A stretch of 64,000 bases of DNA from Promethearchaeota archaeon (GTDB lineage: Archaea > Asgardarchaeota > Lokiarchaeia > Sigyniarchaeales > SOKP01): positions 32,001 through 96,000 of the forward strand of contig JBHLOI010000002.1 in assembly GCA_048940645.1 (NCBI GenBank), written 5' to 3'. The notes beneath the pieces were generated by a model. The model saw only the letters and a list, made by a program, of their open reading frames with translations. It searched no databases and had not been told where the DNA came from. The position numbers and the translations under genes were made by a program. This document shows, in pieces, positions 45,395 through 48,031 of this stretch. Positions within the stretch are counted from its first letter, which is position 1, and each line of letters starts with the position of its first letter.

Positions 45395-45922
45395 TTATTC
45401 TTCTACAGGTATTTCTATTAATGAAAGAATATCATAACCCTGTATTTCATCTCTGCCATGCAAACTCCCAGTTAGCTCAATTACAAATGCAATTCCAATA
45501 ACAGTTCCACCAGTTTTTTCTATTAATTTACATGCCGCTTTTGCTGTCCCTCCAGTTGCTAATAAATCATCAAATAATAAAACTTTTTCTCCCTTTTCAA
45601 TAGCGTCAATATGCATCTCAATTGTGTCTGTACCATACTCAAGTTCGTATGTCTCACTAAGTGTCTTATAAGGTAATTTTCCTGGCTTTCTAATCAAAAC
45701 AAATCCTGCACCCAATTGATAAGCAATTACGCCACCCCAAACATAACCCCTAGCCTCTATTGCTGCGACTTTATCGATTCCTTTATCCTTATAATGATTT
45801 ATTATTCGATCGCAAGATTCTTTAAAAGGGGAATACGCTTTACATAATGTTGTAACATCTTTAAATTGGATACCAGGTTTTGGCCAATCTGGGACGTTTC
45901 TTATATATTTCTCCAAATCCAT
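45395..45922 (-). CDS. apt: Adenine phosphoribosyltransferase
   Basis: PKPGIQFKD, EARG, RKPGKLP, YELEYG, DDLLATGGT. Confidence 0.95.
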   Translation of the reverse strand: MDLEKYIRNVPDWPKPGIQFKDVTTLCKAYSPFKESCDRIINHYKDKGIDKVAAIEARGYVWGGVIAYQLGAGFVLIRKPGKLPYKTLSETYELEYGTDTIEMHIDAIEKGEKVLLFDDLLATGGTAKAACKLIEKTGGTVIGIAFVIELTGSLHGRDEIQGYDILSLIEIPVEE

Positions 45923-46123
45923 TCATATAAACCTTTTACTTCTATTTACAAATTAAATTTATTTTCAGAATAATTTTAATTTCTATTTATGGTAATTAAA
46001 AATTATATTTAATTGAATCGTCAAGACTTAATTTTCTCATCAAAATTAAGAATTAGAAAAAATTATATAAAGACAATCTTATAAGAAATATATTAGACAA
46101 TCAATTTTTAATAATAGATTAAA

Positions 46124-47107
46124 ATGAAGATATTATTATTTGGTCCACAAAATGCAGGAAAGACTAGCTTAATGAGGACAACCTGCTTAGGATATAACTT
46201 CATGAAGGTTTTAAATCTAAAACCAACAAAAGGTATTTCAAGAGAGAATTTTATCTTCCGCGGTATCATGGAACTCAACTGATTTTGCCATTTCGGGAAT
46301 TTCTGAGAAGTTTGGGACGCGGGAGGCCAACAACGGTATATGGAGCGATATTTCTCAGATACACACCGAGAACTTATATTTTCAGAAGTTAAAACTGCGA
46401 TTTTTATGGCAGAATCTACTGTTATTGAGGATAGAGTAAAAGAAGTCTTTGATAAATTTTTAACCTACCTCTTTGAATTTAGCCCTCAAACAGAAACAGT
46501 TTATGTTTTATTGAATAAAATTGATTTACAAGATTCAAAGGAAGATGAACTTTATAATTTATTAATTAAGGGCATTGATAGTGATTTGAAGGAAAAACTT
46601 ATTTTTACTCCTGTGAGCGTAAAGGAGGGGAGTGCCCAACATCGTCTTATTGAAGTTTTAGATTTCGAAATTCAAAAGAATACTCTTGCATTGCAACGGC
46701 TAGGTAAAATAAGACATTTATTAGATCAACTTAAAGTTAATACTTTATCTGAATATCTTTTATTTAATCAACCAGATGGCTTGTTAATAGCTTCAACTTT
46801 GGGCAAATTTGAACATAAACCTTTACAGTTTATGAAATTTGAAATTGGAACGCTTGATTCTAATGTGTACCAGATCTTTAGTAAGATTATGGAACTAATG
46901 AATACTTCAATTTCACCTTTAGAATTAACTACTGTTATATATGAAAGTGAAAGCAATTATATTCTTGTAAAGGAAGTAAGCAATGGCTCGGTCTTAATGG
47001 CTGTTACCCATAATAAAAATAATGAAGTTTTTTCAAATGTTATGGAAACCCTCACTGGGGAGAATTTTATAAATTTAAAAAATTATTTAACTACTTCTGA
47101 TTTTTAA
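46124..47107 (+). CDS. RagA/Gtr1-like GTPase with C-terminal roadblock domain; predicted join(46124..46279,46310..47107), 317 aa
   Basis: Exon 1 (52 aa) MKILLFGPQNAGKTSLMRTTCLGYNFMKVLNLKPTKGISRENFIFRGIMELN carries G1 and G2. It is in frame with exon 2, VWDAGGQQRYMERYFS..RELIFSEV...LLNKID...PVS (G3-G5), followed by a roadblock-like tail (FNQPDGLLIAS...NYILVKEVSNGSVLMAV). The joined sequence parallels RagA ...FLGNLVLNLWDCGGQ..FMENYF... Confidence 0.88.
46280..46309 (+). other. Candidate 30-nt bulge-helix-bulge (tRNA-type) mRNA intron
   Basis: Sequence tgattttgccatttcgggaatttctgagaa, with two in-frame TGA. Central helix CUCA(46274-77)/UGAG(46304-07); 3-nt bulges ACU(46278-80) and AAG(46308-10). 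Cutting after the second bulge nucleotide on each strand excises exactly this segment. Confidence 0.8.
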
Positions 47108-47173
47108 AATATTAAAAAATTTTTTAAAATAAAAAATAAAGAATTTAGAAAAAATATCTGAAAATATTATCTA

Positions 47174-48031
47174 TTATTGTTCTTTTTCCATAAGTGTTTT
47201 TTTGGTTAATATATGTTGTTTTGCATGATGAGGCCTTCTTAAAACAGTGTCATTTGATTTTTCTATCTCTCTTGCTTGATCACACATAAAAGCCGCAGTT
47301 CTCATCATTTCATGGGCGGCTGCTAATAAAGGCATATAATCTTCTCTTTCTTTCAACACAAAGCAAGCTTTCGCTGTAACTTTTGAAACTGAAGCTGCTA
47401 ACTCAAAAGCAGCAATAGCTTTTGCTTCTGCATATGGATTAGAAAAACCAGCAGCTTTAACAGCTTTAATAGCATCAACGATTATTCTTGGCATGCTAGG
47501 AGCTGTTCCTTCAAGCATGCTCATAATTACCTTATTCAATTCTCCTGCAATAACTCGAAGTGCTCCAGTTATCGTAAGAACTTTTAACAAGTCCGAATTA
47601 AAACAACTCATTTCAGTTGGATCTAAAAAGGGTCTTCTTGCACCAATCATGCTATCACAGTTAACTAAAATGTATCCCATCCCTTTTTCTTCAATCTCTT
47701 CCACCGCCTTTTTCGCTGGAGCATCAGAAATTACAATAGTAGGAATTCCAGCCTCTTTAGCCATATCTCTAGCAGCTAATGGTCCTTTTAGAGCAGCATT
47801 CGGACTAGACATTAAAATAAGTTCTGGCTCCCACTTTAATAGATCTTTCATTGTTTCAGTACACATTTCTGGTGGATGCATTTTAGCACCTGATGTTACT
47901 TCATAGACATTAATTCTTGTAGCTTCAGCTCTTTCATCCATAAGGAATGCGAGCAATAAAGAAGAACCAATGGTTCCATTTTTAAGGATGCCGATTTTTA
48001 GTATTTTACCTTCTTCACTCATTTTTGACAC
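47174..48031 (-). CDS. mtd: F420-dependent methylenetetrahydromethanopterin dehydrogenase
   Basis: KIGILKNG, DERAE, SGAKM, SPNAALKGP, DSMIGARR.FLDPTEM, FSNPYA.AKA, AAHEMMR, RRPH. Confidence 0.95.
   Translation of the reverse strand: MSKMSEEGKILKIGILKNGTIGSSLLLAFLMDERAEATRINVYEVTSGAKMHPPEMCTETMKDLLKWEPELILMSSPNAALKGPLAARDMAKEAGIPTIVISDAPAKKAVEEIEEKGMGYILVNCDSMIGARRPFLDPTEMSCFNSDLLKVLTITGALRVIAGELNKVIMSMLEGTAPSMPRIIVDAIKAVKAAGFSNPYAEAKAIAAFELAASVSKVTAKACFVLKEREDYMPLLAAAHEMMRTAAFMCDQAREIEKSNDTVLRRPHHAKQHILTKKTLMEKEQ

Follow-up and report, generated by a model that had tools for sequence, protein, structure and literature searches.

A Rag/Gtr1-like GTPase gene carrying a 30-nt in-frame insert

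The window, that is, the whole 64-kb stretch of DNA analysed, covers positions 32001-96000 of contig C52 of an Asgard genome from a metagenome assembly (3.83 Mb, 29.8% GC, GC3 20.9%). At 46124-47107 on the plus strand it encodes a small GTPase, Rag/Gtr1-like, with apt and gcvT (minus strand) on one side and mtd on the other; a GenBank contig of assembly GCA_048938985.1 matches the GTPase gene without difference. Its reading frame falls into two in-phase ORFs, one of 52 and one of 255 codons, divided by a TGA at 46280, with a second in-frame TGA at 46304. It is the sole Rag/Gtr1-like ortholog in the genome, the remaining matches being paralogs with at most 36% identity. In the Pfam profile Gtr1_RagA (PF04670), exon 1 (46124-46279, plus strand, 52 codons with the P-loop and switch I) corresponds to positions 1-51, and exon 2 (46310-47107, plus strand, from the G3 motif WDAGGQ to the stop) to positions 52-146. 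Given that profile positions 51 and 52 are contiguous across the insert, the 30 nt between the exons (46280-46309, plus strand, starting with the first TGA and containing the second) are extra.

In what follows, G000 denotes the genome of the window, G030 and G020 the two other intron-bearing species, and L-numbers the loci compared. At least one of two queries matched 41 of the 42 genomes of the genus, and the insert is present in three of them (G000, G030 and G020). In genomes that lack it the gene is 30 nt shorter, and in 30+ orthologs the insert is absent to the base, leaving exactly the junction GIMELN/VWDAGGQ. The G000 and G020 inserts differ at 5 of 30 bases, which on in-frame reading gives four nonsynonymous changes and one synonymous. 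For the same pair of species, exon 1 has pN=0 versus pS=0.45 and exon 2 a dN/dS of 0.05 (0.04-0.13 across comparisons). To judge from these substitution patterns, translation involves the exons but not the insert, with purifying selection acting on the exons alone. TGA terminates 192 of the 1463 long ORFs of G000; recoding of this codon was ruled out, given its ordinary use as a stop and the non-coding mode of evolution of the insert. Derivation of the intron from another genomic copy was likewise ruled out, no further copy being found in the G000 genome. An Rfam search of 45900-47200 gave no match.

The C-terminal 165 residues of the GTPase (46610-47104) have no Pfam match, and the region is left unassigned, as Pfam gave no confirmation of a 'roadblock' domain proposed for it by eye. 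At the position of the G000 ATG, codons of the ATA, ATT or TTT type occur in many orthologs (L013, L014, L017-L036), and an internal Met (residue 27) is the first residue of database proteins 289-291 aa long; the start codon of this GTPase family seems to be often non-canonical or miscalled.

A candidate BHB motif at the insert boundaries

In the unconstrained minimum free energy (MFE) fold of all three intron-bearing species, CUCA in exon 1 (46274-46277, plus strand) pairs with UGAG in the intron (46304-46307, plus strand) to form a 4-bp central helix H with a 3-nt bulge on each strand, a 3-4-3 BHB geometry. The four pairs of H are invariant across G000, G030 and G020, and a natural variant, A46306G, retains a U.G pair. 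According to the rule that the text of PMC2738675 states for cbf5, a BHB is cut between the second and third bulge bases. Applied to the 5' bulge AC/U (46278-46280, plus strand) and the 3' bulge AA/G (46308-46310, plus strand; AG/G in L073 and L074), this rule predicts splice sites at 46279/46280 and 46309/46310. The resulting junction, 46279/46310, is the same as that of the intron-less orthologs. The inner helix h' and the intron stem-loop occupy 46281-46303 (plus strand), with G46281-C46303 and A46282-U46302 followed by the stem-loop. Two of the five intron differences between G000 and G020 lie in loops, two form a compensatory change from U-A to C-G and one turns a GxG mismatch into G.U.

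On the exon side, the only pairs available beside the bulges for an outer helix h are A46273-U46311, A46272-U46312 and possibly G46271.U46313. The MFE of the window allele has a 5x5 internal loop there, and that of G020 has 3 bp and a 1-nt bulge. Given these weak pairs, the motif is best described as a relaxed hBHBh' in which strong pairing is displaced outward, to the helix described below and referred to as the clamp. The enzymes for such splicing are encoded in G000: two EndA paralogs (PF01974; contigs C2 and C25) and one RtcB (PF01139; contig C7), all above the cut-off. Asgard EndA is reported to be of the broad-specificity (alpha-beta)2 type with an L1 loop (PMC5829648).

A distal exon-exon helix built from rare codons

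The exon-1 stretch UCUUCCGCG (46254-46262, plus strand) and the exon-2 stretch CGCGGGAGG (46318-46326, plus strand) form nine antiparallel pairs, including the wobbles U46254.G46326 and U46257.G46323, so that the 9-bp helix with two G.U pairs proposed in the sequence-only reading was borne out. RNAfold recovers eight of the nine pairs in both the MFE and the centroid, for 46240-46340 as well as for 46254-46326. The 5' arm spans the codons ATC, TTC and CGC and the following G, and the 3' arm the codons GAC, GCG and GGA and the following GG, within D-A-G-G; at the core, an Arg CGC stands opposite an Ala GCG. The 5' arm is identical in 11 of 11 intron-bearing alleles, and the variant C46318U in the 3' arm retains a G.U pair. 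The same reading had placed the helix just outside the BHB. It does lie outside, although it does not adjoin the motif: 11 nt on the 5' side, and 8 nt including the bulge nucleotide on the 3' side, separate it from the central helix. In the MFE this gap is bridged by a 3-bp helix between 46266-46268 and 46313-46315 (both plus strand).

The earlier count of 38 G+C in the 77 nt of 46254-46330 is exact. Windows of 77 nt as GC-rich as this make up 0.08% of those within the 64-kb window and 0.48% genome-wide, and by part the exons have 27 G+C in 47 nt (57%) and the intron 11 in 30 (37%). The codons that had looked uncommon are indeed rare in this genome: within their synonymous sets, ATC accounts for 13.5%, TTC for 20%, CGC for 4.2%, GAC for 13%, and GCG and GGC for 8.4% each. 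Of GGC, the third base (46327) lies outside the helix.

When the fold extends over 150-300 nt of exon 2, the clamp and helix H of the window allele drop to probabilities of 0.01-0.06, because UCUGAGAA (46302-46309; the 3' strand of H and the bulge) can pair with the complementary UUCUCAGA in exon 2 (46352-46359, plus strand; codons Y-F-S-D). In this long context the fold with clamp and H lies 3.2 kcal/mol above the MFE, and it prevails only as long as no more than ~45 nt of transcript follow the intron. The possible competitor is confined to the window allele: it is weakened in G030 by a TTC to TTT change and absent in G020, where the clamp has a probability of 0.94. Given this lack of conservation, we read the competing pairing as incidental.

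Comparison with synonymous shuffles

Dinucleotide shuffles (z=-1.36 for 101 nt and -2.47 for 73 nt) were set aside as an unsuited null for coding sequence, and a protein-preserving null was used instead. Synonymous codons were shuffled according to the genome's own codon usage, holding fixed the protein, the intron and the three codons of the BHB core. The exon-exon duplex of G000 has an energy of -17.2 kcal/mol, compared with -7.6 +/- 2.2 in the shuffles (P=0.0005), and the native duplex energy of G020 was reached by none of 2000. For the MFE of the pre-mRNA, P was 0.004 in G000 and 0.002 in G020. Helix H has a probability of 0.66 in the native sequence and a median of 0.005 in the shuffles, none of 500 being as high, and the complete BHB appeared in the MFE of only 15 of 500 synonymous samples.

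When the shuffles were matched for GC3, P rose to 0.015 for G000, and 0 of 3000 matched the G020 duplex. GC-richness therefore accounts for part of the effect, and complementarity contributes beyond it. The native sequence thus outdoes codon-shuffled controls, and for the exon-exon duplex it does so with GC3 matched as well.

The strong helix is confined to intron-bearing alleles

Among 33 orthologs, the three intron-bearers have the three strongest exon-exon duplexes (-17.2, -17.2 and -22.1 kcal/mol), the 30 intron-less orthologs ranging from -3.0 to -11.4 with a mean of -6.6. GC3 over the 18 flanking codons is likewise 11-12 in the intron-bearers versus 3-8 in the intron-less orthologs, so that the GC-rich codons are not present, as a set, where the intron is missing. 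In the gene tree the intron-bearers form two separate lineages, each with intron-less sisters: G000 and G030 (-17.2) contrast with L040 (-7.2), and G020 (-22.1) with L013 and L014 (-8.6 and -7.7). A strong exon-exon stem is thus confined to alleles with the intron, in two independent lineages. Together with the shuffles, this contrast supports the earlier proposal that synonymous sites of both exons have been selected for the splice structure. The nearest intron-less relatives do retain some of the codons, namely ATC, CGC and GAC in L009-L011 and the full exon-2 arm in L040, and in the intron-less L009 the BHB would still fold in silico.

In G020 the exons pair in another register, with GGCAUC/GAUGCC, CCGC/GCGG and four more base pairs giving 14 bp. 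It reads GAT at the site of GAC in its sisters, GCC in place of GCT or AGT, and GGC in place of GGT or GGA, and the register of G000 has two of its nine pairs broken in G020. The second lineage thus represents helix turnover into another register, unlike classical pair-by-pair covariation. Across the intron-bearers the clamp shows no double change, and the covariation score, equalled by 162 of 500 shuffles, is not significant; with two lineages and three species, or with nine alleles, such a comparison has little power. The longest run of identical codons in the gene between G030 and G020 is codons 39-52, the 14 preceding the intron. Nucleotide differences between these two species number 0 of 42 in this run, 14 of 114 in the upstream part of exon 1, 5 of 30 in the intron and 8 of 42 downstream. 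The exon-1 arm is shared by both intron-bearing lineages, by descent or by transfer.

The motif itself does not demand such codons, given that the paralogs lack them: in the 28 paralogous GTPases of G000 with the same G3 motif, GAT outnumbers its synonym by 25:3 and the mean GC3 is 5 of 18. An exact look-up of the 52-aa exon-1 peptide found seven more intron-bearing alleles in other samples, all of the G000/G030 type. Their few changes leave pairing intact (G.U for G-C in the clamp and U.G for U-A in H) or else fall in a bulge or mismatch. A protein search with exon 2 returned hundreds of intron-less homologs and, among its top 120 matches, no 255-aa split form. A pattern scan of metagenomes for the BHB core gave two chance matches only, both rejected as unrelated sequence adjoining a trpA-like gene. 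Chimeras in which the intron was placed in silico into intron-less exon contexts mostly formed no BHB; as the CUCA strand is altered there along with the clamp, the two effects are confounded and these folds carry little weight.

Intron state follows a recombining 5' patch

For codons 1-38, which exclude the clamp codons, the three intron-bearers cluster (support 85/61) and the intron-less L040 groups with L013 and L014 (97/96); the grouping of G000, G030 and L040 seen for exon 2 is rejected for these codons (AU p=0.011). For exon 2, conversely, a single intron-bearer clade is rejected (AU p=2e-68). The divergent tract extends from ~100-260 nt upstream of the ATG to the intron. Given that the intron state tracks exon 1 and not exon 2, it appears that the intron, or its absence, has been exchanged between species as a 5' gene patch. 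L040 retains the GC-rich arm of G000 in exon 2, with AGA, TTT and ATT on the exon-1 side, a combination that fits a loss of its intron through patch replacement.

The gene as a whole is a recombination mosaic, the 5' patch comprising part of the intergenic region, exon 1 and the intron (45860-46310; loci L001, L008, L012 and L040). In two comparisons the phylogeny changes exactly where the intron lies. Between G000 and G030, the tract from ~-460 to ~+250 of the CDS is nearly identical. No homing enzyme was found adjoining the GTPase gene.

These data qualify the view of the intron as old and maintained. Maintenance over some time is indicated by two versions 17% apart, the compensatory pair and the purifying selection on the exons; the intron is, on the other hand, rare (3 of 42) and carried on a patch by recombination. 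The accompanying claim that it is not a recent inactivating insertion stands, considering the intact exons, the diverged versions and the compensatory change.

Alternative explanations

A founder effect or pre-adaptation is one alternative, which we consider unlikely, though deserving of some weight: the codons would have preceded the intron in the allele with or into which it came, the exon-1 arm being a passenger of the patch with no later synonymous selection. Such a history would agree with exon 1 and the intron sharing one phylogeny, unlike exon 2, with the identity of the exon-1 arm in all intron-bearing alleles, and with the presence of CGC in L009-L011 and of the complete exon-2 arm in L040, all of them intron-less. 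It does not explain why exon 2 of G020 departs from its sisters exactly at the synonymous sites that make the 14-bp pairing with the incoming arm, a fit that no GC3-matched shuffle attained. Nor does it account for the last 14 codons of exon 1 being free of differences while the rest of the patch is not, and the helices of intron-less lineages are weaker. The GC-rich codons might also have another cause, such as GC-biased gene conversion at break points or a preference for accuracy codons at G3, with the helix incidental. NNC codons (TTC, ATC, AAC, GAC) are often favoured at conserved sites; the region lies at a recombination break point, and the G000 helix, once GC3 is matched, reaches only P=0.015. 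We nevertheless judge this very improbable, as the paralogs sharing the motif show no GC enrichment, orthologs with the same amino acids have a GC3 of only 3-8 of 18, GC alone gives no complementarity of the kind seen in G020, and CGC, GCG, GCC and GGC are not NNC-type accuracy codons of two-fold sets.

Finally, the insert might remain unspliced, with the gene inactive, the TGAs read through or recoded, or the 255-aa part made alone from the ATG at 46340. The last variant would draw on GGAGG (46322-46326), 13 nt upstream of this in-frame ATG, as a ribosome-binding site. This motif was ruled out as an internal Shine-Dalgarno sequence, since G020 has GGCGGT in its place, and a product starting at 46340 would be without the P-loop, switch I and G3. 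Both exons have remained intact, at dN/dS of 0-0.13, between lineages that approach saturation at synonymous sites, and the VWDAGGQ codons between the intron and the ATG vary synonymously save for one Q/E change, and hence are translated. The insert itself, in contrast, accumulates mostly nonsynonymous changes when read in frame, and TGA is an ordinary stop in this genome. An unspliced insert is thus very unlikely, the least probable of these alternatives.

A splicing clamp written in synonymous positions

Set against these alternatives, the reading we prefer is that the clamp is the extended outer exon-exon helix of a relaxed hBHBh' splicing motif in the GTPase pre-mRNA, supplied by rare codons; on the strength of the folds, shuffles and ortholog contrasts, we consider this probable. 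In the corresponding mechanism, the pre-mRNA would fold with CUCA against UGAG and the two 3-nt bulges, the two-subunit EndA would cut after the second base of either bulge, and RtcB would ligate the exons. Only two or three weak A-U or G.U pairs are at hand beside the bulges in a message of 30% GC. The strong distal stem would instead come from rare synonymous codons of both exons, CGC facing GCG together with TTC, ATC and GAC. This stem might nucleate the BHB fold and hold the exon halves together from cleavage to ligation, by analogy with the anticodon stem of a pre-tRNA. We infer both splicing itself and an effect of the clamp on cleavage or ligation, and it seems that splicing shapes codon choice around the intron. 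In a more general and tentative form, which we regard as possible but rather doubtful, Asgard tRNA-type introns in protein genes would impose an RNA-structure code on nearby synonymous sites, as a structural counterpart of eukaryotic exonic splicing constraints. They would spread between species as short DNA patches of promoter, exon 1 and intron, after which the resident downstream exon would gain compensating rare codons, forming a clamp in any available register.

The closest known counterpart is the BHB intron of the cbf5 pre-mRNA of Crenarchaeota (Watanabe 2002; Yoshinari 2006; Yokobori 2009, PMC2738675). According to the text of PMC2738675, the two have in common a short intron in an archaeal coding sequence, a relaxed BHB cut between the second and third bulge bases, reliance on a hetero-oligomeric EndA, and patchy occurrence including secondary loss. 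The present case differs in its Asgard host, its gene and its temperature regime (a 30% GC genome), and in an intron state that tracks a recombining 5' gene patch. The text of PMC2738675, in which 'exon-exon' occurs 0 times, describes no distal exon-exon helix of rare synonymous codons. In archaeal pre-tRNA and pre-rRNA, the hBHBh' motif (Marck and Grosjean 2003, cited by PMC5829648 and by a 2026 Asgard tRNA-intron preprint) is, as presented in these citing sources, similar in its 4-bp helix, opposed 3-nt bulges and exon-made outer helix joining the halves (anticodon stem or rRNA processing stem). In the GTPase, however, the outer helix is protein-coding and hence written in synonymous positions, internal loops lie between it and the bulges, and its register varies by species. 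In the unconventional splicing of XBP1/HAC1, an exon-pairing 'RNA zipper' has been described (Peschek et al. 2015, PMC4687415). There too, a non-spliceosomal mRNA intron is removed by a structure-specific endonuclease, with RtcB ligation and exon-exon pairing proposed to hold the exons. The analogy is one of mechanism only and implies no homology, as that system is eukaryotic and stress-regulated and uses IRE1 rather than EndA and a stem-loop pair rather than a BHB.

Our literature search found archaeal coding-sequence splicing documented for cbf5, and nothing on BHB introns within protein-coding genes of Asgard archaea or on exon clamps built from codons. Should splicing depend on the clamp, the removal of mRNA introns by tRNA enzymes would override codon bias and mark coding sequence measurably in the closest archaeal relatives of eukaryotes. 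A rare-codon stem bracketing a small insert would then also be a practical signature for finding more such introns. That the intron state tracks a recombining patch raises the question of how these introns move.

Other inserts in the same genome

The sole RNase HII gene of G000, rnhB (C86:1097-1726, locus L077), contains at ~1100-1200 a 30-nt in-frame insert with a TAA, located between GIDEAGR and GPVLGPMV. It is probably another mRNA mini-intron; its exon-exon pairing is weakly above that of synonymous shuffles (P=0.064). The sole PFK-family gene (C37:3362-4333, locus L078) has a Pfam match of 266 positions that is interrupted by a TAG and a TAA, as would fit two further small inserts in this gene.
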